Assembly: GCA_963802945.1 (NCBI GenBank)
Contig: CAWDKY010000037.1
Location: 1-38,047 of the forward strand
Direction of reading: 5' to 3'
DNA: 38,047 bases
Origin: an uncultured delta proteobacterium
GTDB lineage: Bacteria > Desulfobacterota > RBG-13-43-22
Shown here: piece after piece, positions 3,334 to 32,277 of the stretch
Layout: each line of letters begins with the position of its first letter
How positions within the stretch are numbered: position 1 is the stretch's first letter
Notes under the pieces: model-generated
What the model saw: only the letters and a program-made list of their open reading frames with translations
Databases searched by the model: none
What the model was told of the DNA's origin: nothing
Position numbers and translations under genes: made by a program

Positions 3334-3854
3334 TTATAATCGTCGAGAACCTGCGACGCACGGGGTCTATTCTGCTGGACGTTAATGTAGAAAGAAAACA
3401 CAAGGTCTTCCTGCTGATCGTCACTCTTAATAGGCCAACTGTTCAATGAAGGACTCCAGTTAAAAGACCAGACGGCGTGGGCGGATCTCGTCTTTTTATT
3501 TTTTGTGAAAATGGCAAAATTTAGGTACGGTTCGTAGGGGAGCGTTGTGCCGTATAACTTCCTGAAATGTTGTTTTTGAATTTTGTTTCTTGATACTACA
3601 TTACAAACGTAATCAATTTGTAAAGGACAATCCTGCCTAGTCCCATTTTCTTCAGAGGACCTCTTTTGCCTCCGTATCTTCCGCCCAGTTTTTTCCTTGA
3701 CCGTTCCTTTTTCTCATTTTATACTTTTTAAAAAAAAGCAATTTTTATCAATAAAAGTCAGTATAAGAACTGGGATACCTAACAAACAATTATAACGGTG
3801 TCTAAAACCAGCATATAAAATAAGATATTCTTAACCCTTTTGGGGGAGGTTATC

Positions 3855-4337
3855 ATGATTGAAACGATCGATTTAAAGATCAATCATAAACCAGTCCGAC
3901 TGAAGGTAGACGGCAATCGAATCCTCCTCTGGGTCCTCCGAACGGATCTGGGCCTCACAGGCACCAAGTACGGCTGCGGCGAAAGCTACTGTGGAGCTTG
4001 TACAGTGCTCATCAACGATAAGGCCGTCCGATCATGCCAGACCTTCATCAAAGATGTGAAAGGTAAAGCAGTAGTCACCATCGAGGGCCTGACCGTAAAC
4101 GGGGTGCTCCACCCCCTTCAAAAAGCCTTTGTGGAGCACGACGCTCTTCAATGCGGCTTCTGCACGCCGGGAATGATCCTCACTGCTTACTCCTTCCTGA
4201 AAGAGCACCCCAGGCCAAGCGAGGCCGACATCATAGCAGGCATGAATGACAACCTCTGTCGGTGTTCATCCTATGTCCGCATCGTCAAGGCTGTTCAGAG
4301 TGCAGCCCGGGTCATGGCGACAGGGAGGGCAAAATGA
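3855..4337 (+). CDS. (2Fe-2S)-binding small subunit of a xanthine dehydrogenase-family oxidoreductase (IorA/CoxS-like)
   Basis: GTKYGCGESYCGACTV, QCGFCTPG and NLCRC motifs; GGAGG RBS before ATG 3855. Confidence 0.93.
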   Translation: MIETIDLKINHKPVRLKVDGNRILLWVLRTDLGLTGTKYGCGESYCGACTVLINDKAVRSCQTFIKDVKGKAVVTIEGLTVNGVLHPLQKAFVEHDALQCGFCTPGMILTAYSFLKEHPRPSEADIIAGMNDNLCRCSSYVRIVKAVQSAARVMATGRAK

Positions 4338-6538
4338 AAATGAATAGGCATTCCCCAACGGTGGTCGACGATCAAGCACAGGGTTTTTCCATCAACCGTC
4401 GCGATTTTCTCAAGGTCGTGGGTGGCGGCATCATGATCTTCTTCTCGGCGGATGTGCTTCTCGCGCAGGTGGGAAGCCAACGTTTTCCCGGCATGCAGTC
4501 CTTGCCTACCGACTTTAACGCCTTTTTGAGGATCGGTGCGAATGGCCGCGTATCCTGTTTCACCGGTAAGATCGAAATGGGCCAGGGTATTGTAACATCC
4601 CTCGCCCAGATGCTGGCCGATGAGTTGGACGTACCCGTCAAGCACATAGACATGGTCATGGGCGACACGGATCAATGCCCTTGGGATATGGGCACCTGGG
4701 GATCTCTCAGCACCCGCGTTTTCGGCCCAGCTCTCCGTCAGGCCGGAGCTGAGGCGCGATCCGTTCTGCTGGCCCTGGCCTCCGAGCACCTCAAGGTACC
4801 GGTGGACCGGTTAATCGTAAAGGACGGTATGGTCACAGTCCGGCAGGATAAGACAAAACAGGTTACCTATGCCAAACTCTGTGAGGGTAAGGTTATCCAG
4901 AAGCACCTTCAGACTAAGGCGCAACGGAAGCAACCAACGGAATTCAAGCTCATGGGCACCTCCCTCACTCGCTTAGATAGCCTCAAGAAGGTGACCGGGG
5001 AAGCCCTATTCACGGGGGACATCCGGGTACCCGGTATGCTATATGCGAAGATCCTCCGGCCACCAGCTCACGGTGCCGCCTTGAAACAGGTCGATATTTC
5101 CGCCCTCAAGGGAAATAAGGAAATCATCGTGGTTCAGGATCAGGACCTGGTGGCGGTCCTCCATCCCCTGCCGGACGTGGCTGAAAATGCCCTCTCTCTC
5201 ATTAAGGCAGAGTTCGAGGTGCCTCCTAACACGATCGACAACAACACTATCTTCCCTCATCTCCTCAAAACGGCGCCCCAAGAAGGTCAGGTCTTCGGAG
5301 GGGAGGGCAGTCTGAAGGAAGGCGAGGCCCTGGCAGCCACAACCTTTGAACATACCTACTATGATCACTACGTGGCCCATTCGGCCATGGAAACCCATAC
5401 CGCCCTGGCAAAGATTGAAGGCGACCAGCTCACCCTGTGGGCCTCCACGCAGAACCCCTTTGGGCTCAAGGAAGAGATGGCGCGGACCCTCGACATGCCT
5501 CCTCAAAAGGTACGCGTCATTACGCCCTTTGTGGGCGGTGGGTTCGGTGGTAAGGCCTTCAATCAGCAAGCCGTCGAGGCCGGTCGTCTCGCCAAGCTAA
5601 CCGGAAAACCTGTCCAAGTCATGTGGAGCAGAAAGGAAGAGTTCTTTAATGATACCTTCCGTCCCGCGGCCATCATCAAGATAAGGTCAGGATTGACGGA
5701 TGCGGGCAGGATCTCCTTTTGGAAGTACGATACGTACTATGCGGGAACGCGGGGTGCAGAGCAACTATTATATGCCGTGGCCCATCATAAGGAAACGGCC
5801 TATGGCGGCTGGATGACCCCCAATGCGGGAGGCCAACTATTCAGGACCGGAGCCTGGCGTGCACCAGGGAACAGCACAAACACCTTTGCCAGAGAATCAC
5901 AGATCGATATCATGGCAGCAAAAATCGGCGCGGATCCACTCGAATTTCGCCTGAAGAACCTCACCAATCAACGAATGCTGGCCACTCTCGGGGCTGCGGC
6001 AGACCTCTTCGGGTGGAAGAAGGGCGCAAGCCCAAGCAGACGGGGTCATGGTCTCGCCTGCGCCCCCGATGCAGGGGCCTATGTGGCGACCATGGCCGCG
6101 GTCGAGGTCGATCGGACAAGCGGAAAGGTGTGGGTCAGGCGGTTGATCTGCGCCCAGGACATGGGTTTTGTGATCAATCCCGAAGGAGCACGCTTACAGA
6201 TGGAAGGTGCCCTTACCATGGGTTTGGGCTATGCCCTCTCCGAGCAGGTAGAATTCAAAGGCAAGCAGGTCCTCACTCAGAATTTTGATACCTATGAGAT
6301 TCCCCGCTTTTCCACGCTGCCGAAGATCGAGACCGTTTTGGTGGAAAACCGTGAACTTCAGCCCCAAGGTGGAGGAGAGCCGGCCATTACCTGCGTGGGA
6401 GCGGCAATTGCAAATGCCATTTTTGATGCTACCGGCGCTCGTCTCTTTACGATGGCCATGACCCCCGAGCGTGTCAAAGAGGCCTTAAAGACGGTAGGTG
6501 AATCATGGGATCGGGCGAGAAACAACATTTCACCCTGA
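4334..6538 (+). CDS. Molybdopterin-binding large subunit (IorB-like) with Tat signal
   Basis: INRRDFLK twin-arginine motif, KIEMGQG, GGGFGGK, AWRAPG, GGGEP; ATGA overlap with the upstream gene. Confidence 0.92.
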   Translation: MKMNRHSPTVVDDQAQGFSINRRDFLKVVGGGIMIFFSADVLLAQVGSQRFPGMQSLPTDFNAFLRIGANGRVSCFTGKIEMGQGIVTSLAQMLADELDVPVKHIDMVMGDTDQCPWDMGTWGSLSTRVFGPALRQAGAEARSVLLALASEHLKVPVDRLIVKDGMVTVRQDKTKQVTYAKLCEGKVIQKHLQTKAQRKQPTEFKLMGTSLTRLDSLKKVTGEALFTGDIRVPGMLYAKILRPPAHGAALKQVDISALKGNKEIIVVQDQDLVAVLHPLPDVAENALSLIKAEFEVPPNTIDNNTIFPHLLKTAPQEGQVFGGEGSLKEGEALAATTFEHTYYDHYVAHSAMETHTALAKIEGDQLTLWASTQNPFGLKEEMARTLDMPPQKVRVITPFVGGGFGGKAFNQQAVEAGRLAKLTGKPVQVMWSRKEEFFNDTFRPAAIIKIRSGLTDAGRISFWKYDTYYAGTRGAEQLLYAVAHHKETAYGGWMTPNAGGQLFRTGAWRAPGNSTNTFARESQIDIMAAKIGADPLEFRLKNLTNQRMLATLGAAADLFGWKKGASPSRRGHGLACAPDAGAYVATMAAVEVDRTSGKVWVRRLICAQDMGFVINPEGARLQMEGALTMGLGYALSEQVEFKGKQVLTQNFDTYEIPRFSTLPKIETVLVENRELQPQGGGEPAITCVGAAIANAIFDATGARLFTMAMTPERVKEALKTVGESWDRARNNISP

Positions 6539-6615
6539 GCTTTTTGGGTCTTCCCTCAAGGCTGCCCGGCGGACGCTCCTCAAGTACAGCGCTTCTTTTA
6601 TCCTCACCTAAGGAT

Positions 6616-6715
6616 CAATGAAACCTCAAGTTTAAAGCCGGGGTAGTCCTGATTTTTCTCCCATATTTCCATCCGTAATCGTTAGTTTTTGGAACGACCT
6701 ATTTAGAATAGTAGG
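6616..6715 (+). repeat. 100-bp direct repeat, copy 1 (copy 2 at 10795-10894)
   Basis: Ungapped alignment 83/100; the last 25 nt (GGAACGACCTATTTAGAATAGTAGG) are identical. Confidence 0.9.
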
Positions 6716-6789
6716 TGTAATCCTCAAATAGGAAAGGGTCTGCCAGTTCTTTTCATGCCTCTTGCAAATAGAACCTATGTAGTAAATTA

Positions 6790-7688
6790 GGGACGCCCTT
6801 TATATATTTATATTTACGAAACGGAATCGTTATGATAAGAAACAATCATGCCGAGGCAAGCCAGAATAGATGCTCCCGATGCCCGGCACCATATTATTGC
6901 CAGGGGAATAGAACGGAGGAAGATATTCCGAGACAATGCAGACCGTGAAGAATTTCTTCGACGACTAGGTCAGGTGGTTAATCAAACTAAAACCAAGTAC
7001 TTTGTCTGGGCCCTGATCCCCAATTACTTCCATTTATTACTGAAAACCGGGACGGTACCGATTGCCACTTTTATGCGAAGGTTATTGACTGGCTATGCCG
7101 CCTGGTATAATCGTCGTCATCATCGAAGCGGCCATGTTTTCCAGAATCGTTATAAATCCGTTTTAGGCCAAGAAGATGTTTATCTGAAAGAATTGGTGCG
7201 ATATATTCATTTGAATTCTTTACGGGCAGGTCTGGTTGAAAATCTCAAGATACCGGATCGATATCCTTATACTGGTCATAGTGTTTTGATGGGGAAGGAG
7301 CAAAAGGATTGGCAATCCACAGAAGCCGTCCTATCATTTTTTTGATGATCAGGTCCATATGGAGAGGGAGAGATATCATACTTATGTCATGGAAGGTATG
7401 AGTCAAGGCCGACAAAAGGATTTAGTGGGAGGTGGATTGATTCGTAGTGGGGGAGGTTGGGCTGCGGTACGGATGCTCTGTAAAGCAGAGAAATTTCATA
7501 AAAGTGATGAACGTATCTTGGGGGATGGTGATTTTGTAGAATTGGGTTTTTCAATGATTGAAATATCGAAACGATTGGAAATATCCTTACCCACCGTGAG
7601 CGTTTCCGTCCAAAAGGTGAGAAGCTTATCCGTGACGAGGGCTGGAGCCTTGAAAAGGTTTTAAATGTAAATATATAAAGGGCGTCCC
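6790..7688 (+). mobile_element. RAYT/Y1-transposase element bounded by 27-bp terminal inverted repeats
   Basis: GGGACGCCCTTTATATATTTATATTTA (6790-6816) matches the reverse complement of 7662-7688 at 26/27. Confidence 0.85.
6848..7678 (+). pseudogene. REP-associated tyrosine transposase (Y1_Tnp/HUH) with C-terminal HTH, degenerate
   Basis: MPRQARIDAP..HHIIARGIERRKIF, GHVFQNRYKS, LVRYIHLN; HUH motif reads NYFHLL (first His lost); frameshift at the T7 run 7337-7343 and another near 7612; apparent internal deletion between ILGDGDFVE and LGFSMIEIS. Confidence 0.88.
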
Positions 7689-7878
7689 CCTTTACCACTG
7701 CTGATTGAAATTAGATAACATGTACCTTTCAATCAGAGATACAACTGATTAGCCTTTTCCGTGTTTATTAATTTGCTGGAAACCATGGAGATAATCAAGA
7801 AATTTCACTAGGCCTCTAAGGTCTTTGACTTTCTGTTCTGTTTCAGGGTGGGTTAGCACATAATTAGGAATTGTTGGG

Positions 7879-9408
7879 GTGAAAGACATGTTGATGCTGG
7901 ATTATAAAACTTATGAAGAAGCAAAAGAAAAATTTACCATTAACCAGATCTGGGAATTGTTCGATGGAACTCCGGAGCATTTCAATCTCGGTCATGAATG
8001 CATAGACCGACACCGGGGAAAAGGAGTAGCCGTCCGGATCCAGTTCGATGACGGACATCGGGAAGAATACTCCTTTGCCGACCTTTCGCGGCTGACATCA
8101 CAATTCGCCTATGCACTGGAATCGTTCGGCGTTGCCAAGGGAGACCGCGTAGCCGTGATGCTCGACCCTTCGCTGGACTTCTACGTCTGCCTTTTCGGTG
8201 TCATCAAGCGGGGGGCTATCTTTGTGCCCTGCTTTACCGCCTTCGGGCCAGAGGCCTTGGACCATCGGATGAAGGATTCCGCAACGAAACTACTCGTCAC
8301 CACACCTAAGCTTGCCGGGACTATCGATCCCAAGGGCACATACCGCATCGTTCCCACAGGCGAGGCCTTTCAACATCTATTGGCGGCTCAGAAAGACACC
8401 TACATTCCGGACACGGCAGCCAGCGATATAGCTGTGCTCCAGTATACCAGCGGTGCGACGCGCAAGTTTCCCCAGGCTATTCCTCATTACCATAGAAGCG
8501 TCCCGCTGTTGATGCCGGCGGCCATCTTTGGTCGGGGATACAGACTAGGAGACCGCTTCTTTTGTCCTTCATCGCCGGCCTGGGGTCACGGCATGTGGCA
8601 CGCAACCATGTCGCCTTTGGCCCTGGGCGTAGCCACAGGTTCGTATTCGGGTAAGTTCGATGTCCGCACCCTCCTCGAAGGTTTGGAGGCCTTCGAGATC
8701 GACAACTTTGGCGCTGCGCCGACGGTATACAGGATGATCAAGAATTCCGGCTTGATTGATCATTACAAACTCAAGATCCGAAAGATGCACTACACTGGAG
8801 AGCCCATGGACACCGACACCTTCGAATTTTTCAAAGCGAGATTCGGGGTGCCTCCCCACAGCGGCTATGGTTCCACGGAGGTGGGCGCTGTGATCTACCA
8901 GTACGCCGGTTTCCCCGACTGGGTAGTGAAGCCGGGGTCCCTCGGGAAGCCCATGCCAGGTCTGGAAGTCAAACTGATCGACGGCGATGGGAACGAAGTA
9001 CCTCAGGGACAGATCGGAGAGATTGCGATCTGGCGAAGGGGGAAATGGCTCCGCGCCCGCGATGCCGCCGTCATCGATGAGGACGGCATCTTCTGGCACA
9101 AAGGCCGCGTGGACGACATCATCATTTCAGCGGGCTGGACCATCAGTCCTACCGAGATCGAAGACGTCCTGAAGAAGCATCCGGCGGTCCAGGAGGCAGC
9201 GGTGATCGGAGCGCCGGACGCCGAGCGGGGACAGATCATCAAGGCCTTCATTGTGGCTAACCGACCGACCACGCCGGAACTTGACCGGGAATTAAAGGAA
9301 TTTATCAGAACCCGCCTCAGCCGGCATGAATATCCACGAGTTATCGAGTTCGTCGATAGCCTTCCCAAAAATGAGGCGGGAAAGGTGATGAAACGGGGAC
9401 TCAAATAA
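7879..9408 (+). CDS. Acyl-CoA synthetase / AMP-binding protein
   Basis: YTSGATRKFP, GYGSTE, GRVDDII and LPKNEAGKV adenylate-forming motifs. Confidence 0.92.
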   Translation: MKDMLMLDYKTYEEAKEKFTINQIWELFDGTPEHFNLGHECIDRHRGKGVAVRIQFDDGHREEYSFADLSRLTSQFAYALESFGVAKGDRVAVMLDPSLDFYVCLFGVIKRGAIFVPCFTAFGPEALDHRMKDSATKLLVTTPKLAGTIDPKGTYRIVPTGEAFQHLLAAQKDTYIPDTAASDIAVLQYTSGATRKFPQAIPHYHRSVPLLMPAAIFGRGYRLGDRFFCPSSPAWGHGMWHATMSPLALGVATGSYSGKFDVRTLLEGLEAFEIDNFGAAPTVYRMIKNSGLIDHYKLKIRKMHYTGEPMDTDTFEFFKARFGVPPHSGYGSTEVGAVIYQYAGFPDWVVKPGSLGKPMPGLEVKLIDGDGNEVPQGQIGEIAIWRRGKWLRARDAAVIDEDGIFWHKGRVDDIIISAGWTISPTEIEDVLKKHPAVQEAAVIGAPDAERGQIIKAFIVANRPTTPELDRELKEFIRTRLSRHEYPRVIEFVDSLPKNEAGKVMKRGLK

Positions 9409-9454: not shown

Positions 9455-10627
9455 ATGGCAACGCAACAGAAGGATGAGAAGAAAGTTCAGTTGAGTGAAG
9501 GAAAAATTACTGAGGAGGCTCTGGCGGAGTTAAGCCGCCGTGTCGGCGCCAAGTTCCGGATAGATCCTTTCCATACGCAGGTTTGCAGCGATACCATCCG
9601 GCATTTCGTCGATGGAGTTGGAGACGTCAATCCGCTGTACAGGGACCCGCAATATGCCTCAAAGACGCGCTATGGAAAATTGGTGGCTCCGCCTTCCTGG
9701 CTCTACAGCGTTTTCCCAACCTGGCTTCCCCAGGGATTGCAAGGTGTACATGCCTTCCACGCTGGCAACGACTGGACATTTTACAAACCGTTGTTCGATG
9801 GCGACGTAATCACGCCGGAGCTCATTTTCACCCATTTCGACGATAAGAAGAGCCAATTCGCCGGCAGGAGCATCATTGTGCATTATGATGATAACTTCTA
9901 TAATCAGCGCGGTGAACTCGTCGCCAAAGCCAAAGCCTGGAGCGTCCGCGCAGAACGCGCTGCTGCCCAGGAGAAATCAAAATACGGCGGCATCGAACTC
10001 CCGCATCCCTGGACGGAAAAAGAGATTAAAGAGATCGAGGAGCAGGTCCTGGCGGCGGAAATCCGGGGATCTAAAGTTCGTTATTGGGAGAGTGTTAGCG
10101 AAGGAGAAGAATTGAAACCCCTAGTCATCGGGCCTATCGGCCTCACCGATATCATCGCCTGGTGCATTGGTAGTGCCCCGGTCAAGCTGAAGGCTCTGGG
10201 CGCAGCCCTGCGCGACTACCGGCGGCATCCGGCCTGGGCGTTCCGCGACCCCGCTACGAGTGCGCTGGAACCGACCTATGCAGTCCATTACAACATTGAT
10301 GCCGCCAAACAGGCCGGAGTTCCTTATCCTTATGACGTTGGTGCCCAGCGCAATCAATGGGTTATCCAGCATATGACCAACTGGATAGGTGATGAGGGGT
10401 GGCTCAAGACTTGTTACGCCAAGTATACGAAATTCGTCTATCTGTCCGATGTCCTTTGGCTTCGCGGAAAGGTGACGAAAAAATATGTCGACGAGACGGG
10501 TGAACACTGCCTGGATATCGAAACCACCACGACTAATCAGCGCGACGAGGAGGTCATGCCCGGCCATTCGACGGTGATACTGCCGAGCCGGGAGAAAAAT
10601 ATTTGGCCCGTGGCCTTGCGCCTGTAG
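9455..10627 (+). CDS. Double hot-dog MaoC/FAS1-like dehydratase domain protein
   Basis: IRHFVDGVGDVNPLYRDPQYA..LVAPP and a second domain VHYNIDAAKQAGVPYPYDVGAQR; AGGAG RBS. Confidence 0.85.
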   Translation: MATQQKDEKKVQLSEGKITEEALAELSRRVGAKFRIDPFHTQVCSDTIRHFVDGVGDVNPLYRDPQYASKTRYGKLVAPPSWLYSVFPTWLPQGLQGVHAFHAGNDWTFYKPLFDGDVITPELIFTHFDDKKSQFAGRSIIVHYDDNFYNQRGELVAKAKAWSVRAERAAAQEKSKYGGIELPHPWTEKEIKEIEEQVLAAEIRGSKVRYWESVSEGEELKPLVIGPIGLTDIIAWCIGSAPVKLKALGAALRDYRRHPAWAFRDPATSALEPTYAVHYNIDAAKQAGVPYPYDVGAQRNQWVIQHMTNWIGDEGWLKTCYAKYTKFVYLSDVLWLRGKVTKKYVDETGEHCLDIETTTTNQRDEEVMPGHSTVILPSREKNIWPVALRL

Positions 10628-10794
10628 GAAGCTGCCAATACATCCCGTCGACCTCTCGACGGCTTGATGGTTTCAAAATCGTAGCTATTTCGATTTTGGC
10701 GATGGAGTAGGATGAGGTGGTCCCCCAAAATTAGACAATGTGAATAAGCTCAGAGTTAGCCCAAAGGAAGAAAGTGGCTATGGCCAAAAATGAG

Positions 10795-10894
10795 CAATGA
10801 CACCTCAAGTTAAAGGACTGGTCAGTCCAACCATTTCTTCCATATTTCAATTCGTAATCGTTAATTTTCGGAACGACCTATTTAGAATAGTAGG
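10795..10894 (+). repeat. 100-bp direct repeat, copy 2
   Basis: 83/100 identical to 6616-6715. Confidence 0.9.
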
Positions 10895-11009
10895 GGAAGC
10901 CACCAAGCAAGTGGGGCCAGATCTATGAAAAAGTTCTTATCGAACAATTATTGGCTTTAAGCAAGTTGAGGGGGATAATAACACGTAAGTTTTAAATCCG
11001 GAGGTTAAG

Positions 11010-11794
11010 ATGGACTTAAAGAAAATCAACGATGCCTATACAAAATATCTACGCCCGCAGACCTTTCCAGTGGCGGTGCGGATGTGTTCCTCGGAAAAGG
11101 AATTGCCGGAAAAAGTACGCCTGCCCCAGCGGGATATGGGTTTGAACATCTCCCTCTGTCACGCCATCGCCATGGCCCGGCGTTACGGCTGGGTGATAGC
11201 CGTGGACAAAACCGTTTCATGCTATGTGCCGGCCATTAGCCTCGGGTTTGTGAACCCCCCCCGGATGTCGTTGACGGCTCATTTCAGGCTTCGCAGGGAC
11301 TGTGGGGTATGACCAAGGAAGCCGCCGCTGCTTTAATTGAAAATATGCATAAATTCGAATACGGGTTATACACCCATGCGCTGATCGCGCCGCTGGACCG
11401 CGCCGGTTTTGAGCCGCATGTCGTTATCCAGTATGCCAGCCCGGCACAGCTCTGGGTGCTTCTTGTCGGTTATCTCAACGGCAATAAAAAGGGCGGCCTG
11501 GATGTCCGTCTGACAGCAGGCAGTGGTTGCACCAGCTACATTACCAAGACGATGCTTACCGATGAAGCCCAGTTTGTGTTGGTGGGGACGGGAGAACGGC
11601 TGGTACCGCATCCGCAGGACAGTGAATGCGCCTTATCCATACCCGCTTCAAAGCTGGAAAACACGGTCAAGGGGCTGGAAGACAATTATAAGACCGGGGT
11701 GTTCCGGTATCCGATTCCAACCTTTATGCGCTATAACTCGCAGCATCCGCCCGGCTATAAAGAAATGCGCAGCCATATACTGGGCGAGGATTAG
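11010..11794 (+). pseudogene. DUF169 family protein, frameshifted at a C8 run
   Basis: YLRPQTFPVAVRM..SLCHAIAMARRYGW continues as PDVVDGSFQ..MTKEAA..APLDRAGFEPHVV if one C is added at 11255-11262. Confidence 0.8.
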
Positions 11795-11943
11795 TAGTCG
11801 AGATCGGGGGGCAAAATTTTCGAAAAGAGAGGCAAAGCTTTTTTCTGACTTTTGTCTAACGTGCACTCCTCATAGAAGCCCTCTTTTTTAAAAGAATCGC
11901 CATGAATTGTAAAGATAAAAGACCTGACCCCAGTGGCCACTCT

Positions 11944-12429
11944 TCAGAATATCCATGGAATCATACGCCATCGTACCTGTTGTTTATATTTTGCATAGTC
12001 AACTGGAAATTGTTTCATTAATGCCTCTTCTTCTTTTAATTCGGTTAAAACCCAATGAATAATCGTCAGCAATGCTAAACCAAAAGTTACCATAACCCCA
12101 AAGATAAGAGCGATTCCAATGTTCATTGTAAGGAGACTGAGATATAAAGGGTGACGAATTTTTGCAAATAACCCCGCAGTTACAATAGTCTCTATTTTAT
12201 GTGATTCTTCATGGGCCTGTTTATGCTTTTTATGTGCCCACCAATGAAACCCAAAACCCAAAATAATAAGAACACCACCCAACATATGTGAAAATGGGAA
12301 AATAGGGAATGTTTTCCAAGAAAAAACCAACCCGCATATTCCTGTTACAATTAAAATAATCTTCTCAATGATGCCTCGATAAAGAGGATTGGACAGGAAA
12401 AAAGCATTAAGGATATTACAACTATTCAT
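11944..12429 (-). CDS. Isoprenylcysteine carboxylmethyltransferase/PEMT-family membrane methyltransferase
   Basis: IVTAGLFAKIRHPLY..EEEALMKQF..YAKYKQQV..MIP. Confidence 0.85.
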   Translation of the reverse strand: MNSCNILNAFFLSNPLYRGIIEKIILIVTGICGLVFSWKTFPIFPFSHMLGGVLIILGFGFHWWAHKKHKQAHEESHKIETIVTAGLFAKIRHPLYLSLLTMNIGIALIFGVMVTFGLALLTIIHWVLTELKEEEALMKQFPVDYAKYKQQVRWRMIPWIF

Positions 12430-15747: not shown

Positions 15748-15778
15748 TTTTTCTCCTTGCATGCCTGGTCTATTTGGC

Positions 15779-16911: not shown

Positions 16912-16968
16912 GATTAATGACACTGTCAAAAAGATTAAAAACCTATTGTATAGTAACCGGATTTACTT

Positions 16969-21180: not shown

Positions 21181-21183
21181 GAA

Positions 21184-21337: not shown

Positions 21338-21367
21338 TCAAACCTCTTTCGAGGGAAAGGAGAAACA

Positions 21368-25516: not shown

Positions 25517-26301
25517 TTCAGGTGAAAAATGTCGGCTATCGCTATAACCACCAATGGGTGATCAAAGAGATCTCCTTTCAAATGGACCAGGGGGAACTTA
25601 TTGGACTGATCGGCCCTAATGGATCAGGTAAAACAACTTTATTGAAATGTTTGGACCGGCTTCTGGTTCCTCAGGAAGGAAAAGTTTTATATGAAGGGGA
25701 ACCTTTAGTCCATTTCTCTCAAAATAGGATCGCCAGAAATATAGCCCTGGTTTCTCAGGAATCCCCATTGATCTTTTCTTCCACGGTTTTGGAAACGATT
25801 CTCATGGGCCGCTATCCGTATTTAAAACGGTTTCAACTCGAAGGCCCTAAGGATTTCCGTCTGGCCGAGGAAGTTATGGAGCAGACCCAAACAAAACATT
25901 TTCAGCAACGATCATTATCAGAACTTTCCAGCGGAGAAAGACAGCGGGTTTACTTGGCACGCGCCCTTTGTCAAGAACCCAGGCTGCTTCTTTTAGATGA
26001 ACCGATGGCCTTTCTGGATATCCAGCATCAGGTTGGCCTATTGGATCTGATACAAAAGCTGAATCACGAAAAAGGGCTGACTATTCTATTAACTTCCCAT
26101 GACATCAATTTGACCGCTCAATACTGTCATAAACTGATATTAATTCATGAAGGCCGTATTGAGACCATAGGAACACCAGCCCAAGTGATTAAGGAAGAAA
26201 ATATTGAGAAGGTTTTTGAGACCCAAGTGTTGGTGGATCAAAATCCATTTACCCAAACCCCCCGAATCACCTTGATGGGCGGGCATAAGCGCAATACCTA
26301 A
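25504..26301 (+). CDS. btuD: Cobalamin ABC transporter ATP-binding protein
   Basis: GPNGSGKT, LSSGERQR, LLLLDEP, TSHD. Confidence 0.9.
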   Translation: MDPLIQVKNVGYRYNHQWVIKEISFQMDQGELIGLIGPNGSGKTTLLKCLDRLLVPQEGKVLYEGEPLVHFSQNRIARNIALVSQESPLIFSSTVLETILMGRYPYLKRFQLEGPKDFRLAEEVMEQTQTKHFQQRSLSELSSGERQRVYLARALCQEPRLLLLDEPMAFLDIQHQVGLLDLIQKLNHEKGLTILLTSHDINLTAQYCHKLILIHEGRIETIGTPAQVIKEENIEKVFETQVLVDQNPFTQTPRITLMGGHKRNT

Positions 26302-26312
26302 GGAATTCATTA

Positions 26313-26461
26313 AATCCCTTTTTTGGTTCATGGCGTTGCCCTGGGGATATTAATTTTTACCTGGCACGGTGGGGTCTCTTGAAGTCCTGCGTTCTTCCGG
26401 ATTTTCCATCCTCGATCAATCGGCTTTGAAGGGGGTAAAAGAGTGGAAGTTTATACCCGCC
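26313..26461 (+). pseudogene. tonB: Energy transducer TonB remnant (internally deleted, interrupted at WKFIPA)
   Basis: LVHGVALGILIF anchor, then in another frame GTVGSLEVLRSSGFSILDQSALKGVKEWKFIPA (TonB C-terminal pattern). Confidence 0.8.
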
Positions 26462-26498
26462 GTTGTCAACAAATAATTAGTATGGATGTCCCCCGATT
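26460..26498 (+). repeat. 39-bp end motif, copy 1 of 3
   Basis: CCGTTGTCAACAAATAATTAGTATGGATGTCCCCCGATT; also at 30812-30847 and 32086-32124. Confidence 0.9.
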
Positions 26499-26674
26499 GT
26501 CTTTACCTCATGAAAGATACGCCCCCCGGGTTTTCGATCCCATGATTTTTTGACTTACTCTTTTGATGATAGGAGGATTAAAATTTAATTGATGAAAAAA
26601 AGGATTTTTGAAGATAAAATCGGGACCAGCGATTGATCAGGTAAATCGCAAACTTGATAAATGGAGGATTCGTA

Positions 26675-28285
26675 ATGAAGAAAGATGATGAATTCAGGAA
26701 AATCACCACCTGGAAGCCGGGTATGGGATGGGAGGCGGCGATTGAGGAGTTGGAAAAGCGCCGAGAAGTTACCAAACGAATGGGGGGAAAGGAACGCATT
26801 GCCCGCCATCACAGCCAGGGGAAACTGACCATACGGGAACGCATTGAAAAGCTGGTGGACAAGGGCACTTTTATGGAGGTCGGGTCCCTGATGGGCAAAG
26901 GACAATACGACGGGGAGGGAAATATGATCGGCTTCACTCCTGCCGCTTTTGTTTTAGGGCTGGCCGAAATCGGCGGGCGGTTGGTTACCGTGGGAGGTGA
27001 AGACTTCACGATCAGCGGTGGCAGCCCTGCAGGAATCCATAAGGATGCGCGTTTTTTTACCCAACCTATGTCCCAGCAGTACGGCATCCCGCTGATCCAG
27101 CTTTGTGACGGCGCTGGGGCCAGCGCTGCAAGCTACGAAGACAGGGGGCGGATGTTTCTGCCTCCGGGAACGACTTTATGGTGGGGAGATGTGCAACTGC
27201 TGCAAAAAGTGCCGATGATATCGGCTGTCATGGGCTCTTGCGCCGGTCACGTGGCGGCCCGGGCTGTCCTTTCACATTTTTCTATCATGGTCAAAGGGAG
27301 TGGACAGATATTTCCCGCCGGCCCTCCGGTTGTTTCCAGGGCTCTGAGCAAAGATATAGAGAAAGACGACTTGGGCGGCACCAGGATTCACACCCGGGAA
27401 TCCGGCGTCATTGATAACGAAGCCGCGAATGAAGAGGACTGCTTTCGCCAGATCCGTGAGTTCCTCAGTTATATGCCTAATAATGTCTATGAGGTACCGG
27501 CCCGGAAAGAGACAGGGGATGATCCGAACCGCCGGGCGGAAGAACTGCTGCGGATCGTGCCCATGGACCGCAAAAAAGCTTATGACATGTATAAGGTCAT
27601 AAGCCTACTTGTTGACCGGGGTGAATTTTTCGAGTTGCGCAAACATTATGGTTCTTCCCTCATAACAGTCCTGGCTCGGATGGACGGTTATGTCGTGGGA
27701 ATTCTGGCCAGCAACCCGATGAAATTGGCCGGAGCCCTGGAAGGAAAGTCTTCTCAAAAAATGGAACGTTTCATTGATATCTGCAACTGTTTCAACATTC
27801 CAGTGGTACTTCTGGTGGATGTGCCTGGTTTTATGATCGGGGAAGAGTCGGAAAGGGGAGGTACTTTGCGATATGGTATGGCTGCCGTCATGGCTGCGCA
27901 GGAGGCGACCGTTCCTAAGGTCCATATTGCCGTGCGGAAATCCTACGGCATGGGGGGAGACGCCTTCTCCAGCGTCGGGGGCATGATGTCCCTTAATCTG
28001 CGTTTTGGCTGGCCCAGTGGAGAATGGGGAGCGATTCCGGTGGAGGGAGGGGTTGCCGCCGCCTACCGCAGGGAAATTGAATCCTCACCCGATCCCGAAG
28101 CCAAGCGCCGGGAATTGGAGGAAAGGTTAATCGGGGTTCGCTCCCCATTTCGGGCTGCCGAAGCCGGCGATGTCATTGATATCATCGACCCGCGGGATAC
28201 CAGATCGATAATCTGTAAATTTATCAAGACTGCCCAGCCATACCTGAAGAGAAATGCGGGCCCGAAGCGGAGCGTCCGGCCATAA
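26675..28285 (+). CDS. Acyl-CoA carboxylase carboxyltransferase subunit
   Basis: MGGKERIARHHSQGKLTIRERI, EDFTISGGS, DLGGTRIH, VDVPGFMIG, IIDPRDTR; GGAGG RBS. Confidence 0.93.
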   Translation: MKKDDEFRKITTWKPGMGWEAAIEELEKRREVTKRMGGKERIARHHSQGKLTIRERIEKLVDKGTFMEVGSLMGKGQYDGEGNMIGFTPAAFVLGLAEIGGRLVTVGGEDFTISGGSPAGIHKDARFFTQPMSQQYGIPLIQLCDGAGASAASYEDRGRMFLPPGTTLWWGDVQLLQKVPMISAVMGSCAGHVAARAVLSHFSIMVKGSGQIFPAGPPVVSRALSKDIEKDDLGGTRIHTRESGVIDNEAANEEDCFRQIREFLSYMPNNVYEVPARKETGDDPNRRAEELLRIVPMDRKKAYDMYKVISLLVDRGEFFELRKHYGSSLITVLARMDGYVVGILASNPMKLAGALEGKSSQKMERFIDICNCFNIPVVLLVDVPGFMIGEESERGGTLRYGMAAVMAAQEATVPKVHIAVRKSYGMGGDAFSSVGGMMSLNLRFGWPSGEWGAIPVEGGVAAAYRREIESSPDPEAKRRELEERLIGVRSPFRAAEAGDVIDIIDPRDTRSIICKFIKTAQPYLKRNAGPKRSVRP

Positions 28286-28422
28286 CCTATTCCACCTTTG
28301 CCTCGATAGGTGATAATTGTTAATATGAAAGATGCGACCCCATGCTTTGTGTTTTAAATGTAGCATCGTTTAACGTTTTAACAATTAAAGAGAACCGGCC
28401 CCTTTATTTTATTGGTGGCCGG

Positions 28423-28502
28423 AAAGAGTGGAAGTTTACCGCTCAAAAGACGGCAGCCTGTTGAGATGTTGTCCAGATACCGGACACCTTATGCTGGAGT
28501 AA
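28423..28502 (+). pseudogene. Degenerate copy of the tonB 3' end
   Basis: AAAGAGTGGAAGTTTA matches 26438-26453; the remainder aligns with 30688-30769 with about 6 small deletions. Confidence 0.8.
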
Positions 28503-28587
28503 AACAGGAAATAGGCAATAGGGAAGAGGCAAGAGGGAATAAGAGACTAATAAAAGTATAGTCATTGGCCTAAAATTTATGACCTGC

Positions 28588-28651
28588 TTATAACGCAAAG
28601 TTTACCGGGAAGCCCGATTTTCAGGCGATCCGCTGGAACGTCTTGTTAGGC
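28588..28651 (-). other. Integron attC site (64 bp) overlapping the antitoxin 3' end
   Basis: Minus strand GCCTAAC-aagacgttccagcggatcg...cccggtaaactttgc-GTTATAA; the ORF reads through as RLTRRSS. Confidence 0.75.
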
Positions 28652-28868
28652 GCTTGGTGCACCGGGTGATCTCTAAGAGAGATCTCAGTGCTTCATTCAC
28701 CGAGGCAGAATCATGGAAGGCCTTAGCAACATCGGAGTCAAGAATAACAACGTTCGAACCTTCTTCAAGAAGACGTTTGTAATATTTTCCTCGGACTGCC
28801 CTTGTATAATCAAAGTTATACTCCGGACGTAATTCGTCACTCTCTTTTTTTGTCTTTTTATCCTTCAT
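28602..28868 (-). CDS. BrnA-like antitoxin
   Basis: DELRPEYNFDY..VRGKY..LDSDVAKAFHDSASVNEALRSL; overlaps the toxin gene. Confidence 0.85.
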   Translation of the reverse strand: MKDKKTKKESDELRPEYNFDYTRAVRGKYYKRLLEEGSNVVILDSDVAKAFHDSASVNEALRSLLEITRCTKRLTRRSSGSPENRASR

Positions 28869-29127
28869 GTCTTTTCCTCTCTTGGCTGGACGCTGGTCTG
28901 GCGCTAATGATGCGAGTATTTTCTCCTCTGTCTGTATGCGCAACAACGATAAGACGATTTTTTGAGGAAAAACCAATTGTGATGTATCGTTGTTCCTCTT
29001 TCGAATGATCGGGATCGTCAAAAGTTGCTGATAGTGGGTCATAAAGCGTTGTTACTGCTTCATCAAAAGAGACGCCGTGTTTCTTTAAATTTTGTTTGGC
29101 TTTTTGGGAGTCCCATTCAAATCGCAT
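28858..29127 (-). CDS. brnT: BrnT family toxin
   Basis: MRFEWDSQKAKQNLKKHGVSFDEA..DPDHS..RIISAR. Confidence 0.93.
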   Translation of the reverse strand: MRFEWDSQKAKQNLKKHGVSFDEAVTTLYDPLSATFDDPDHSKEEQRYITIGFSSKNRLIVVAHTDRGENTRIISARPASSQERKRHEG

Positions 29128-29187
29128 ACTGATATTCTATCGCATTTTAGATTATTAATCCAGGCATAAAATTGAATTGAATCCAAC

Positions 29188-29319
29188 CTACCTTTTAAGA
29201 TTACTTTCCCCCTGTCTCTGGCGATCCTTGGCAAATCCGAAAAGGAATTCTCTCTTGTGGCCTCGGTGGGTAATATGCCAGATACAGCCTGGAATATAAT
29301 GTCGCTTTGCTCTTGCCAT
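29188..29319 (-). pseudogene. N-terminal fragment of a second RAYT/Y1 transposase (not in the ORF track)
   Basis: MARAKRHYIPGCIWHITHRGHKREFLFGFAKDRQR.. then stop after 43 aa. Confidence 0.8.
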
Positions 29320-29353
29320 TTGTTTTTCGAATAAAGCCCTTAAAGTAGTTTAG

Positions 29354-29374
29354 GAACTCAGTAAACAACGTCCC
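29354..29374 (+). repeat. 21-bp RAYT-end-like motif, direct copy at 30662-30682
   Basis: GAACTCAGTAAACAACGTCCC versus GAACTTAGTGGTCAACGTCCC (17/21), both followed by T runs. Confidence 0.7.
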
Positions 29375-29408
29375 TTTTTTTGGCTGAAGAAGTAGGCGAT
29401 GGAGTGGT

Positions 29409-30488
29409 TCAGGGTTGTTCTCCTCTTACCTTGGGGGTGGGGCCGGTGAGCCGCATGGCGCCCTTGGCAAGCACAGGGCCGAGCAGCAAGACGGCGAGAA
29501 AACGGCCGATCTGGACCGCCATCACCAGGGATGCGTCGACGTGCGTACCGGCAGCGATGATCGCGATCGAGTCCGCGCCGCCAGGGCTGGTGGCGAGGTA
29601 GGCGGTGAGTGCGTCGAGGTGCGATACGTGCGCCAGCACCCAGCCGATTGCGGCACAGGTCCCTATCAGCGTCACGATCGAGGTGAACACACGCGGCAGT
29701 GCGCGGGCCGCCTGACGGAAGATGTCGCGGGTGAAGCGTAGGCCAATGGCCCAACCGATGATCAGGTAGCTTGCCGCAAGGAGTGGCTGCGGCAGTTCGA
29801 CTCGAAGATAGCCCAGGTCCTGAAGTGCGGTCATAGCCACCAGGGGTAGGAGCAAAGGGGCGGCAGGGAGGCGCAGCCTCGGCCCGATGAGGCCGGAGAT
29901 GAGGATGACCACGAGCACGATCGCGAAAGATGGCCAGGCGACTGGCACGAGCCAGGCCGTATGATGCACGGCTGCGCCGGCGAGGCCCCAGAGCCGGCCC
30001 ACGAGCGAGGCCGTCAAAACGACGAGGACGACGCGCAGGTACTGCATCAAAGCGACCAGGGGCATGTCGCCGCCGAAGGAGTCGGCGAGCAGCACCATCA
30101 CCGTCGCCGCGCCGGGGAAGGAGCCCCACAAGGCCGTGTTCCCGGGCAAGACGTGCAGGCGGGTGAGCACCATACCGAGCGCTGTGGCGACAAGCAGAAC
30201 AGAAAGCGTCGCGCCGATAAAGAGGACGAGGTGCTGGCCGATGGTCTGGAACAGGGCAGGCGTAAAATTGCGGGCGATGAGGCAACCAACGACCGCCTGG
30301 GCGAGGGGGAAGAGCCAGCCAGGCATCTGCAGTGTTGCGCCGCCGCCGACAAGGATCATGGTCGCGCCCATTGCGCCGAGAAGGAAGGCCGCTGGCAGGC
30401 CGATCAATTGGAGGAGGGCGACAAGAACGGCGGTGGTTATCAGGAGGAGCGGAATCGTGAAAAAGAGGAGGTGATCCGTTTGATTCAT
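29409..30488 (-). CDS. AbrB-family membrane protein (AidB regulator / ammonia monooxygenase-like annotation)
   Basis: Duplicated LPAAFLLGAM / LPAAPLLLPL, FPGAATVM / SPGGADSI, ALMQYLRV / MAVQIGRF; visibly higher GC than flanks. Confidence 0.9.
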   Translation of the reverse strand: MNQTDHLLFFTIPLLLITTAVLVALLQLIGLPAAFLLGAMGATMILVGGGATLQMPGWLFPLAQAVVGCLIARNFTPALFQTIGQHLVLFIGATLSVLLVATALGMVLTRLHVLPGNTALWGSFPGAATVMVLLADSFGGDMPLVALMQYLRVVLVVLTASLVGRLWGLAGAAVHHTAWLVPVAWPSFAIVLVVILISGLIGPRLRLPAAPLLLPLVAMTALQDLGYLRVELPQPLLAASYLIIGWAIGLRFTRDIFRQAARALPRVFTSIVTLIGTCAAIGWVLAHVSHLDALTAYLATSPGGADSIAIIAAGTHVDASLVMAVQIGRFLAVLLLGPVLAKGAMRLTGPTPKVRGEQP

Positions 30489-30630
30489 TTTTGACAATCT
30501 GGCTCTCTTTTTATCCCCCTGTCCACACCTTTGTTGTCAACTCTCAATTCCAAGACGACTTCAGACATGGACACTCCTAATTTCTGGTTTAAATAGGGGC
30601 AGATTTCTTCCCTTTACTCCGATGCGGCCA
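30485..30630 (-). pseudogene. Possible degenerate C-terminal HTH fragment of a RAYT transposase
   Basis: REEICPYLNQKLGVSMSEVVLELRV..GIKR resembles LGFSMIEISKRLEI of the 6848 element; lies inside the 30662-30682 end motif. Confidence 0.4.
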
Positions 30631-30687
30631 TTCAACGACTAAATCCAGTATAGCATTTTGTGAACTTAGTGGTCAACGTCCCCTTTT

Positions 30688-30769
30688 AGTGAAGTTTATA
30701 CCTGCTCAAAAAGACGGGCAGCCTGCTGAGATGTTGGTCCAGATACCGGTCACCTTTAAGCTGGAATAA
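30688..30769 (+). pseudogene. In-frame copy of the tonB 3' end
   Basis: Encodes KFIPAQKDGQPAEMLVQIPVTFKLE*, the continuation of the TonB sequence broken at 26461. Confidence 0.85.
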
Positions 30770-30811
30770 AAAAGATGAAATGAGATAATGAGAAATTGAG
30801 ATTACAGATAT

Positions 30812-30847
30812 CCGTTGTCAACAAATAATTAGTATGGTCCCCCGATT
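30812..30847 (+). repeat. 39-bp end motif, copy 2 (3-nt deletion)
   Basis: CCGTTGTCAACAAATAATTAGTATGG-TCCCCCGATT, preceded by CAGATAT. Confidence 0.9.
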
Positions 30848-30886
30848 TCGTAGCCCTATCTCCTTTCTGTCAGAATGATATTGAGG

Positions 30887-32014
30887 CTATATGCGTCTCA
30901 GCCCGGGGATCGCCGGATAAAGGAACCAGAGATAGCGCTGATGAAAATGCGCTCTGGATTTAATAATCGGCTTATAGATTAGATGTGTGCTGTAAGGGTG
31001 GGTAGCGTTAAGAAATATTTTGGCAAGATAGCATAGCCGCCACCAGCGATTCATGCGCCGGAATTCCTGTAAGGCCTTATCCCTGTCTTTTACCGCGATC
31101 GCGGCAATTTTCCCGGATACGAGAGCGCCATGAACGCCTAACACCCAAGAGGGGTCCTGAACGCCCGCCAGCGTTCCCGTGAGAATGAACCGATCATGAA
31201 AAAGCCGCGGATTGAATAATGAATGTGTAGGCGTACCCACATAATCCTCGATTATTCTCCAATCGTCAAAATCCAATCCCTCATCTTCTTTTAGCCGCCT
31301 TGGAAACCACTCCTGGGCCGCTGCGGAAATGCTCGCCCCCCGCTGAAAGAGAATGGCGGCCCCTATGCCGTTTATAATGGTAAAATAGCCGTAGTCTTTC
31401 GTAAATCTATCAAGATATACTATTGTTTCAGGCCCTTGGTGTTTCTTGAATTCTTGAATGGCAAAATACGCATACGCCGGTACGAACGGCACATCAAGAG
31501 CGATAAAGGACTTTCGGAACATGCCGGTCGCTATAATGCTTCCCGATGGGAGTTCGGAAAAATCATTCTTGGACTCCACGACCGCATTGAAGCGGAATTT
31601 TACGCCCGCATTGCGGGCGGTATGATACAGGTGGGAATCAAGCGAGGATGGCCGCGGACCGCGCTCGATGAGTTTCACGTGCAAATTCTCTGGAAAATAC
31701 ATTTCGCATTTTGTACCCGATATATAAAAGCGCGCAGAGGGCAGCGGGGTAAAATAGTCGATGTGATTGCATTTTTCTTTATCGGGCATGAGATCAAAAC
31801 CAAGATAGTGCGAGAGTCGCTCGATATCGAATGGCGTCATGTCGGCAATCGCAAATGGTCTTTTCATTTTTACTTCCTGGTCTAGGGCGACCCCGCCGAT
31901 AGCATTCCCCCTCTCCCAGATTTCAACTTCATAGCCGTCGCGGGCCAAACAGATCCCCGCAGTCAACCCCGAAAGACCAGCGCCGACGATAAGTATTTTA
32001 CCCAGACGTGCCAT
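30887..32014 (-). CDS. FAD-dependent oxidoreductase (geranylgeranyl reductase-like)
   Basis: KILIVGAGLSGLTAG..EIWERG, IIATG, LTGTLAGVQDP..GVHGALVSGKIAA. Confidence 0.85.
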   Translation of the reverse strand: MARLGKILIVGAGLSGLTAGICLARDGYEVEIWERGNAIGGVALDQEVKMKRPFAIADMTPFDIERLSHYLGFDLMPDKEKCNHIDYFTPLPSARFYISGTKCEMYFPENLHVKLIERGPRPSSLDSHLYHTARNAGVKFRFNAVVESKNDFSELPSGSIIATGMFRKSFIALDVPFVPAYAYFAIQEFKKHQGPETIVYLDRFTKDYGYFTIINGIGAAILFQRGASISAAAQEWFPRRLKEDEGLDFDDWRIIEDYVGTPTHSLFNPRLFHDRFILTGTLAGVQDPSWVLGVHGALVSGKIAAIAVKDRDKALQEFRRMNRWWRLCYLAKIFLNATHPYSTHLIYKPIIKSRAHFHQRYLWFLYPAIPGLRRI

Positions 32015-32085
32015 GAGTATCCTATATCATTACTACATCTTCAATGTCAAGAAAATAGACCTGACCCCTATTTCCCCTCAGACAT

Positions 32086-32124
32086 CCGTTGTCAATAAAT
32101 AATTAGTATGGATGTCCCCCGATT
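32086..32124 (+). repeat. 39-bp end motif, copy 3
   Basis: 38/39 identical to 26460-26498, preceded by CAGACAT. Confidence 0.9.
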
Positions 32125-32245
32125 CTAAAATTCATACATATAATTAAAACCTAACGCTGAGGCTCTTTGACAGTGATTAGTTGCAAATGGGGTAAGCTAA
32201 TATCGTCTCTTTGAACCCCGATGGGCCCGTTCTCAAAGGTAGAAT

Positions 32246-32277
32246 TGTAAAATAGGGAGGGCTGTCCCTATTTTACA
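32246..32277. terminator. Perfect 13-bp hairpin abutting the Mrr-like gene stop (terminator or element end)
   Basis: TGTAAAATAGGGA-GGGCTG-TCCCTATTTTACA. Confidence 0.55.

Follow-up and report, generated by a model that had tools for sequence, protein, structure and literature searches.

CCCC-ended strings in a reshuffled accessory region of an uncultured Desulfobacterota genome are probably a mixture of RAYT element tips and unrelated repeats

Introduction

Short repeats punctuate one- or two-gene accessory modules at hotspots in integron cassette arrays and CALINs, in the pdif modules of Acinetobacter and in the minimal mobile elements (MMEs) of Neisseria. Insertion sequences of the IS200/IS605 family, which share the Y1 HUH transposase fold with RAYT proteins, have ends formed by subterminal hairpins rather than inverted repeats, and REPIN-RAYT systems are reportedly the subject of work by Bertels and Rainey from 2011. 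Classical RAYT genes occur as one copy per genome, pass on vertically and go together with palindromic REPs in the hundreds. RAYT Group 1 of Bertels et al. 2017 (PMC5581495) is marked by wide distribution, few flanking repeats and signs of horizontal transfer. RAYT genes with long terminal inverted repeats instead of GTAG REPs, moderately abundant families of these repeats, and 'REPtrons' have also been described (Di Nocera et al. 2013, PMC3733652). The subject of this work is a 38,047-nt stretch of DNA from an uncultured delta proteobacterium (the window), in which strings ending in CCCC lie between accessory genes. An initial annotation had taken these strings for a single motif family at which RAYT transposases might capture genes.

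We describe the repeat classes and element boundaries of the window, its mosaic structure relative to sister genomes and an insertion hotspot within it. The strings are probably a mixture of RAYT tips and unrelated repeats, clustered in a reshuffled accessory region whose cargo would not have been moved by RAYT. The locus documents RAYT elements bounded by inverted repeats which, together with small repeats, mark the seams of a shuffled region in uncultured anaerobes, and it is of value for annotation in that ends, remnants and pseudogenes could otherwise be mistaken for regulatory motifs or a new system. Beyond the ordinary are an element end of 21 nt that is identical across phyla and a tonB hotspot with replacement 3' ends and no recombinase in the scanned open reading frames (ORFs).

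The window is the entire contig C37 (CAWDKY010000037.1) of genome G000 (GCA_963802945.1), a draft assembly of 4.37 Mb in 72 contigs with 47% G+C and an estimated contamination of 6.7%. Gene order was taken from an ORF map and from Pfam scans of the window ORFs. Comparisons were made with the closest relative, sister genome G005, with other genomes of the family and genus (G001, G004, G006-G009 and G011 among them), and with metagenome contigs from four runs of related strains; no run shares more than 0.13 of the words of 26000-33000. Contig numbers refer to G000 unless another genome is named.

Sequence classes of the CCCC strings

All fourteen listed strings are present in the window at the coordinates given, the CCCC forms between 7680 and 32268 all being on the + strand. 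According to the ORF map and Pfam scans they do sit at gene junctions, with the exception of 3362, which marks no junction. They do not constitute one motif family, as had been proposed, since the sites fall into at least six unrelated sequence classes and k-mer counts are near chance. Inverted-repeat tips of RAYT elements are found at 6790 and 7680 (lineage 1) and at 11920 and 32057 (lineage 2), while 29366 adjoins a lineage-3 remnant. The remaining classes are the tip of a ~190-nt repeat, famB (10716), a genome-specific 40-nt repeat, R (26484, 30835 and 32110), half of a 63-nt hairpin repeat, P (28391), a promoter-like direct repeat (29366 and 30674), a terminator (32260) and a chance match (3362).

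Within the window GTCCCCC occurs 8 times against 7.80 +/- 2.60 expected from 100 shuffles, and three of its five intergenic matches are copies of one local repeat. Genome-wide, ~0.88 Mb of crude intergenic DNA was compared with an order-2 Markov model. Intergenic GGGGAC/GTCCCC stood at 1.07x expectation, GGCCCC at 0.71x and GTCCCT at 0.83x; among the tested tips only GGGGTC/GACCCC was raised (1.40x, rank 61 of 2080 six-mers). A single family of the kind described by a position weight matrix was ruled out by these k-mer statistics and by the unrelated contexts of the sites.

The RAYT component of the mixture was recognized correctly in the initial annotation, which had named three strings as ends of RAYT remnants: such remnants are confirmed at 6848-7664, 29218-29319 and 32005-32076. 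Its statement that an AT-rich tract follows the motif is partly right, but in the RAYT ends the AT-rich part precedes the CCCC and lies inside the element.

The core of the set is formed by small RAYT-type elements of ~930-1100 bp, whose terminal inverted repeats supply the outer tips and each of which encodes an IS200-like Y1/HUH transposase with a C-terminal helix-turn-helix (HTH). Gene-less derivatives and solo ends carry the same tips. At least three lineages are present, and in their ends a GGGG(A/T)C tip gives way to an interior that is AT-rich and bears a promoter. RAYT elements, like other small repeats, probably insert, decay and recombine preferentially in plastic zones, and because they favour such zones their ends would mark junctions. 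The sites cluster in the window because it holds two plastic zones. The cargo genes, on this reading, would have arrived by other recombination events and not by RAYT transposition.

RAYT elements and their ends

A GGGG(A/T)C tip is common to the ends of three RAYT lineages. The lineage-2 string of 11920 and 32057, AGACCTGACCCC, is the outer tip of a ~25-nt repeat, AATGTCAAGAAAATAGACCTGACCC(C), outside which the sites are no longer similar. Fifteen exact copies of AGACCTGACCCC occur in G000, where simple arithmetic predicts ~0.5, and the lineage-2 tip GGGGTCAGGTCTWT, at no more than one mismatch, has 40 matches against 3 for the reversed control. The repeat gives 22 nhmmer matches at E<=0.01 and is over-represented elsewhere in the genome, outside genes. 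Two near-identical full elements of 935-936 bp, at C16:245749-246684 and C33:35402-36338, have inverted end repeats around a RAYT gene (238 and 284 aa). Other copies in G000 are one broken, one a 5' remnant, and gene-less versions of 139 and 257 bp.

Intact RAYT genes were found at three places in G000 (C33, C16 and C32), all outside the window, and none in the window itself. The Y1_Tnp scores of these three copies are 1e-11 to 1e-12. Against the NCBIfam model REP_Tyr_transpos (cut-off 80) the C33 copy reaches 84.9 bits, the others lying below the cut-off at 54-72 bits. Lineage-2 RAYT proteins have a C-terminal HTH; in two other lineages this region is DnaA_C-like. The lineage-2 ends, together with those of lineage 1, are inverted repeats of 25-27 nt. 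The lineage-2 left end folds no better than shuffles (z -0.57), and hairpins arise from doublets only. No direct target duplication was seen in the lineage-2 flanks compared, and some of these flanks are themselves inverted complements. Over 14 congeners the copy number of the tip varies from 40 (control 3) in G000 down to background, 10 (control 10), in G009.

Among public contigs of metagenome-assembled genomes (MAGs; L050-L083), a ~928-bp lineage-2 element has a 21-nt end that is identical to the letter at 36 sites on 34 contigs from several phyla, with MAG labels of Thermodesulfobacteriota/Deltaproteobacteria, Smithella, Thermodesulfovibrionales/Nitrospirae, Nitrospinae, Atribacterota and Pseudomonadota. 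About 15 of these 36 sites lie ~30-55 nt upstream of a RAYT-type ORF, most of which start with MARPLRI. Identity of this order across phyla implies that the element spread horizontally not long ago or that its end is under very strong constraint. Twenty inward-facing pairs of the 13-mer core were surveyed in these loci: 11 pairs of 927-935 bp hold the RAYT alone, 4 are doublets of 55-64 bp, and 3 have lost internal DNA (lengths of 310, 348 and 503 bp, the shortest overlapping a larger pair). Three longer pairs (1356, 2422 and 2785 bp) enclose other genes; two of the gene-holding pairs use an end with two mismatches and the other uses a third copy beside a doublet.

At 32005-32076 on the - strand the window carries a lineage-2 left end, which has the tip GGGGTCAGGTCT and a TTGACA promoter and extends over the first 10 nt of the gene for the RAYT. 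The region 32005-32068 is 96-98% identical to RAYT 5' ends at C16:246621, C33:36275 and C30:107872. These first 10 nt are fused to an FAD-oxidoreductase gene (30887-32014), the homologue of which in run X3 matches 30886-32001 only. A deletion that joined the RAYT start to a downstream gene is the simplest reading of this fusion.

The lineage-1 element occupies 6790-7690 (+). Inverted repeats of 27 nt, 96% complementary and with the tips GGGACGCCC and GGGCGTCCC, form its two ends (6790-6816 and 7662-7688). Its RAYT gene is broken into 6848-7345 and an out-of-frame C-terminal part, 7359-7664; the protein matches Y1_Tnp at 3.4e-10 and REP_Tyr_transpos at 1.7e-14, the latter below the model's cut-off. 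In G001 an intact copy of 340 aa lies between these repeats in different flanks, by which the element ends are defined as (G)GGGACGCCC... The window copy has NYFH where the G001 protein has NHFH, lacks ~190 nt and is dead. At C28:78488-78572 the two lineage-1 repeats form an 86-bp doublet without the gene, which has a long hairpin fold (-44 kcal/mol, z -8.4). Only two further lineage-1 repeat sites are present in G000.

Lineage 3 is represented by an N-terminal RAYT remnant of 34 codons at 29218-29319 (-), with a best tblastn E-value of 8.9e-6. Relatives, mostly decayed, are found in 16 of 20 family genomes and share a conserved upstream region that starts with GGGGTCGGGCCAC ~120 nt before the ATG. 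The string at 29366 was considered as the lineage-3 tip and ruled out, because the similarity of the window to these relatives starts only ~15-22 nt before the ATG.

Comparison with described elements

The elements fit a kind already described, that of RAYT genes flanked by long inverted repeats (PMC3733652). In common with those, a Y1/HUH RAYT-like gene lies between inverted repeats, and copies are scattered in the tens, partly as hairpin doublets. The present elements differ in having a GGGG(A/T)C tip and a promoter-like TTGACA in the left end, in lacking a GTAG tag, and in that one lineage varies little in length (927-935 bp) and shares an identical 21-nt end among several phyla.

As in REPIN-RAYT systems, the flanking repeat forms inverted doublets (55-139 bp) and the transposase matches NCBIfam REP_Tyr_transpos. 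A Y1 domain with a match to the RAYT model, inverted flanking repeats and a repeat enriched outside genes are all features of RAYTs that are present here; two marks of classical REP systems are absent, there being no GTAG-tagged palindrome and the transposase being neither single-copy nor vertically inherited. By comparison with classical RAYTs, G000 has two near-identical full copies plus remnants, tens of repeats rather than hundreds, a variable copy number and a distribution over many phyla. In these respects the elements look closer to Group 1 of PMC5581495, whose members move horizontally and have few repeats.

The Y1 HUH fold (Pfam Y1_Tnp) and the lack of a direct target duplication are shared with IS200/IS605. 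Unlike members of that family, the present elements score only 19.1 and 16.1 bits against transpos_IS200 (cut-off 55), end in inverted repeats of 25-27 nt and encode an additional C-terminal HTH. The window also resembles integron, pdif and MME-type arrays in having short repeats between one- or two-gene accessory modules at a hotspot; it differs from them in that gene orientations are mixed and the bracketing repeats differ among themselves. No IntI or other integrase domain was found in the Pfam-scanned ORFs, small or unscanned ORFs lying outside that search.

Unrelated repeats among the strings

The ~190-nt dispersed repeat famB is present at 10713-10896 (+), where its 5' tip TGAGGTGGTCCCCC contains GGTGGTCCCCC (10716-10726), and as a partial copy at 6610-6735. 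G000 has 43 nhmmer matches to famB and 24 tips with at most five mismatches; an alignment of 13 copies gives a sharp 5' edge, and a copy in another genus is 82% identical. No link between famB and RAYT was found, and the famB CCCC faces inward, opposite to that of the RAYT ends. The tip looks like an IS3 inverted repeat, and in G005 a 20-codon ORF start follows a famB copy at a contig end. An IS3-type end was nonetheless set aside for famB: no right-hand partner came to light, and what lies between two inverted copies at C33:122693-125141 is ordinary genes. The repeat may be an RNA, an IS end or a MITE.

Repeat R is a direct repeat of 40-46 nt with copies at 26460-26498 (+), 30805-30850 and 32079-32124, and it contains GGATGTCCCCC (26484 and 32110) and TGGTCCCCC (30835). 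It does not fold. A 21-nt core recurs elsewhere in G000 at C15:407595 and C27:60738. Searches of 13 congeners gave no copy of R, and a collection of 185,579 species has no exact match to it; together with the two extra cores in G000, these absences led to the rejection of R as a widespread recombination site. By eye, the opposite strand of R resembles the region upstream of a broken RAYT at C17:145992.

At 28387-28406 the window holds half of P, a 63-nt hairpin repeat (fold z -4.8) of which AGAACCGGCCCC (28391) forms one arm. A 20-mer covering AGAACCGGCCCC has 11 matches in the genome against 0 for the control. P hairpins separate the variable single-gene segments of an array at C15:400.5-410.5 kb.

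The strings at 29366 and 30674 flank the AbrB gene (29409-30497, -). A promoter-like site, TTGACC-18-TATACT, lies upstream of this gene at 30647-30684 (-), and the -35 end contains CAACGTCCCC (30674). With 10 of 12 positions matched and a TG besides, it ranks first among the promoter-like sites of 26300-32300, which are no commoner in that interval than in shuffles (8 vs 6.3). The left copy of the direct repeat, at 29354-29374 (-), contains CAACGTCCC (29366) and resembles 30661-30684 and a G005 copy (L021:10730-10765), a likeness seen by eye and unpaired by BLAST; the G005 copy also stands to the left of AbrB. AbrB was examined as a conserved repeat-bounded cassette and rejected as such, its G004 homologue (82% identical) being without these repeats on either side.

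The string GGCTGTCCC (32260) is the loop side of a terminator-type hairpin at 32241-32275 (-), just after the Mrr-like gene, which folds at -18.3 kcal/mol (z -4.45) and is followed by a U run. The look-alike GGGGTCTATTC at 3362-3372 (+) belongs to a segment that has a colinear counterpart in G005 and a duplicate at C31.

Mosaic structure and the tonB hotspot

The sister genome carries the window in pieces on seven contigs, at 88-96% identity over the main shared blocks and 82-85% for two short pieces. Two zones of the window are plastic, ~3.6-16.2 kb and 26.3-35.4 kb. Of the 16 window junctions whose neighbours are not those of G005, nine contain R, P, the promoter-like repeat or an end of RAYT type; none of the three clearly conserved junctions does, and the numbers are too small for a test. 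Many junctions of the window do coincide with these repeats. Four other 20-kb regions of G000, chosen for holding lineage-2-type ends, contain 16 ends: for 8 a G005 block boundary is at most 100 nt away and for 1 it is 123 nt away, 7 are in DNA without a G005 match, and none is inside a conserved block. This fits an association of the ends with plastic DNA and is weak as evidence, because ends are intergenic by nature and the regions had been picked for them. A further region, C30:272001-292000 (L098), is highly mosaic, with ~15 blocks of 0.3-1.6 kb each matching a different small G005 contig.

The second plastic zone lies downstream of a B12-uptake operon and is a hotspot for insertions into the final 85 nt of tonB. 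G006 and G007 retain the ancestral order btuD-tonB-GH3, with 0.7-0.9 kb between the flanking matches. In G005 an intact tonB of 249 aa (TonB_C 2.8e-21) is followed by 7.7 kb of accessory DNA, and in the window there are tonB remnants only, with 9 kb of accessory DNA. The C-terminal remnant at 26362-26459 (+), cut at ...GAAGTTTATACCCGC, is 94% identical to G005 L021:9282-9380. A second partial 3' end, 28420-28504 (+), starts with a ~20-nt repeat of the break sequence 26440-26459, and a third lies at 30686-30771 (+). Partial tonB 3' ends thus occur three times in G000 and three times in G005. The window joints (26440-26459, 28420-28441 and 30686-30700) all fall within AAAGAGTGGAAGTTTATACCCGC, and their G005 counterparts on L021 (G005:C42) are at 9358-9380, 10480-10502 and 12086-12100. 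Three joints within 23 nt look site-specific rather than random and resemble an attachment core.

Into this hotspot a carboxyltransferase unit, 26500-28408 (+; gene 26654-28285), has been translocated. By comparison with G005, the inserted DNA starts with the 40 nt of R, continues with the unit and ~12 nt of filler and closes with the ~20-nt target repeat. Direct repeats of the form TGAAAGATRCG.CCCC lie in the unit at 26511-26529 and 28326-28341; they also occur in the native context, L022 (G005:C23), at about 3105-3135 and 4915-4945, and the genome has three more look-alikes. The native locus, beside a divergent hydratase-like gene, is found in G005:C23, G008:C13, G011:C60 and run X1. The X1 contig continues to 28408, and the P half-site therefore belongs to the native downstream region of the carboxyltransferase gene.

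Given a repeat-rich draft of 72 contigs with the contamination noted above, the mosaic could in principle consist of chimeric joins made at repeats during assembly. This is highly improbable. A short contig of run X2 bridges the joint between R1 and the carboxyltransferase unit, which argues against a chimeric join there, and a 179-nt piece is identical to the window; the AbrB junctions are common to G005 and run X1; and R is not dispersed outside the contig in such a way as to mislead an assembler. The joint between tonB and R1 itself is bridged by none of the contigs of the four runs. The run contigs were also used to look for circles; their joints 26445>30691, 30759>28493 and 30688>29383 only reproduce the G005-like arrangement with intact tonB, and an odd R-to-R joint, 32119>30827, is present in run X1.

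The tonB joints also bear on whether a non-RAYT, site-specific cassette system operates here, with another recombinase acting at the tonB core (AAAGAGTGGAAGTTTATACC) and perhaps at R and P sites. The clustering of the three joints, the threefold recurrence of partial tonB 3' ends in both genomes and the single-gene segments set apart by P hairpins on C15 would all suit such a system. So would the proximity of R and P: at C15:407595-407688 (L094 7095-7191) the R core is 17 nt from a full 63-nt P hairpin, and in the window the two flank a cassette. We nevertheless regard a system of this kind as unlikely. No recombinase-type Pfam domain was found in the scanned ORFs of the window and of the G005 hotspot, ORFs without a Pfam match remaining undecided; R is missing from the congeners searched; and unequal crossing-over among tonB fragments could produce some of the joints.

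Cargo units and the proposed gene capture

The strings had further been thought to bracket cargoes of one or two genes. Only the DUF169 gene lies between two lineage-2-type ends; the ends of the other cassettes are unmatched. The ligase-dehydratase pair is bracketed by the lineage-1 RAYT tip and a famB tip, the carboxyltransferase gene by R and the P half, and the FAD-oxidoreductase gene by R and the lineage-2 RAYT end. The DUF169 unit (10913-11931) holds a frameshifted gene (11010-11312 and 11309-11794) between a degenerate lineage-2-type end at 10913-10926 (2 mismatches) and a good inverted one at 11906-11931. In G004 and G011 the DUF169 gene has other surroundings that lack such ends. Inward-facing lineage-2-type ends also enclose a metabolic unit of four genes at C27:71732-75685 (L096 13733-17684), which, as named from their translations, are crotonase-like, CoA-transferase-like (two) and a small Smr-like one. 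The 2.7-kb core of this unit sits elsewhere in G005 without a convincing flanking end.

Several of these observations weigh against the view that the strings are a mixture with cargo brought in by other recombination. The DUF169 and C27 units lie between inward-facing lineage-2-type ends that are absent from the corresponding G005 places compared. On either side of the carboxyltransferase unit, and likewise of the AbrB unit, lie short direct repeats that end in CCCC. R and P, adjacent on C15, also flank the carboxyltransferase unit, for which chance is a poor explanation, and the tonB joints that converge on the same 23 nt are three independent ones.

Capture in trans would mean that RAYT (Y1) transposases act on DNA between any two GGGGWC-tipped ends and so accumulate cassettes of one or two genes. 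The tip shared by three lineages, the intact RAYT genes on C33, C16 and C32, the two end-bounded cargo units, the FAD-oxidoreductase gene driven from a RAYT left end and the 0 of 16 ends found in conserved blocks of the four other regions are consistent with it. Nonetheless, we consider it improbable. The lineage-2 end has 85 matches in G000 at up to two mismatches, from which ~2.4 inward-facing pairs within 6 kb are expected by chance, and the two cargo pairs are therefore no excess; in other genomes 18 of 20 pairs are free of cargo. The FAD-oxidoreductase fusion has no second end, a deletion being simpler, and the four-region result has the bias in selection described above.

The cassettes of the window, bracketed as they are by two different repeat types, speak against the proposed Y1 cassette system, as do the mostly cargo-free pairs elsewhere. 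The related idea that Y1 transposases cut and join at the motifs is at odds with the tonB insertion, the one insertion with an empty site for comparison, in which a ~20-nt target duplication and 40 + 12 nt of filler are unlike 'peel and paste'. Gene capture by RAYT is not supported. It is possible that the ends move genes between them, and if RAYTs do move cargo between such ends, this would be a new route of gene mobility. A broader proposal, that an HTH-bearing RAYT clade spread across anaerobic phyla recognizes GGGG(A/T)C ends and mobilises DNA in trans, resulting in integron-like, single-strand HUH gene shuffling at hotspots such as the tonB 3' end, is distinctly unlikely.

Other features of the window

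The window begins with a split P-type ATPase (ORFs 361-2181 and 2193-2741); a paralogous region, 90% identical to 361-2741, lies at C16:35082-37642. A cold-shock protein gene copy at 2810-3170 is 98% identical to C31:4989-5349 and is followed at 3175-3336 by a ~160-nt repeat with many copies across the genus. Next in order are a 2Fe-2S/molybdopterin oxidoreductase pair, the Y1_Tnp gene, the acyl ligase and dehydratase genes and the frameshifted DUF169 gene. Several lone accessory genes separate DUF169 from a B12 block, which comprises cobU/S/C, a TonB-dependent receptor gene, btuFCD and two cobalamin riboswitches at 18902-19089 and 21175-21345 (106 and 64 bits) that precede cobU/S/C and the TonB-dependent receptor/btuFCD genes. 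Downstream of this block are the genes for the carboxyltransferase, BrnT/BrnA, the AbrB-family membrane protein, the FAD oxidoreductase, the Mrr-like nuclease, two unknown proteins and a GH3 hydrolase.

Comparison of the window with its own genome placed a dispersed repeat in nearly every spacer of at least 100 nt, with at least 10 families represented. Hairpin-rich GTCATTCC...GGAATGAC repeats, of which the genome has dozens of copies, lie at 16968-17114 and 23481-23602; repeats of this type are also found at junctions conserved in G005, and that at 16968-17114 is inside a G005 block. A promoter-like repeat, GTAACCTATTATAAAT...TCTTGACAAATT, with ~10 copies, is present at 15776-16018 and 35313-35479, two junctions without CCCC motifs.

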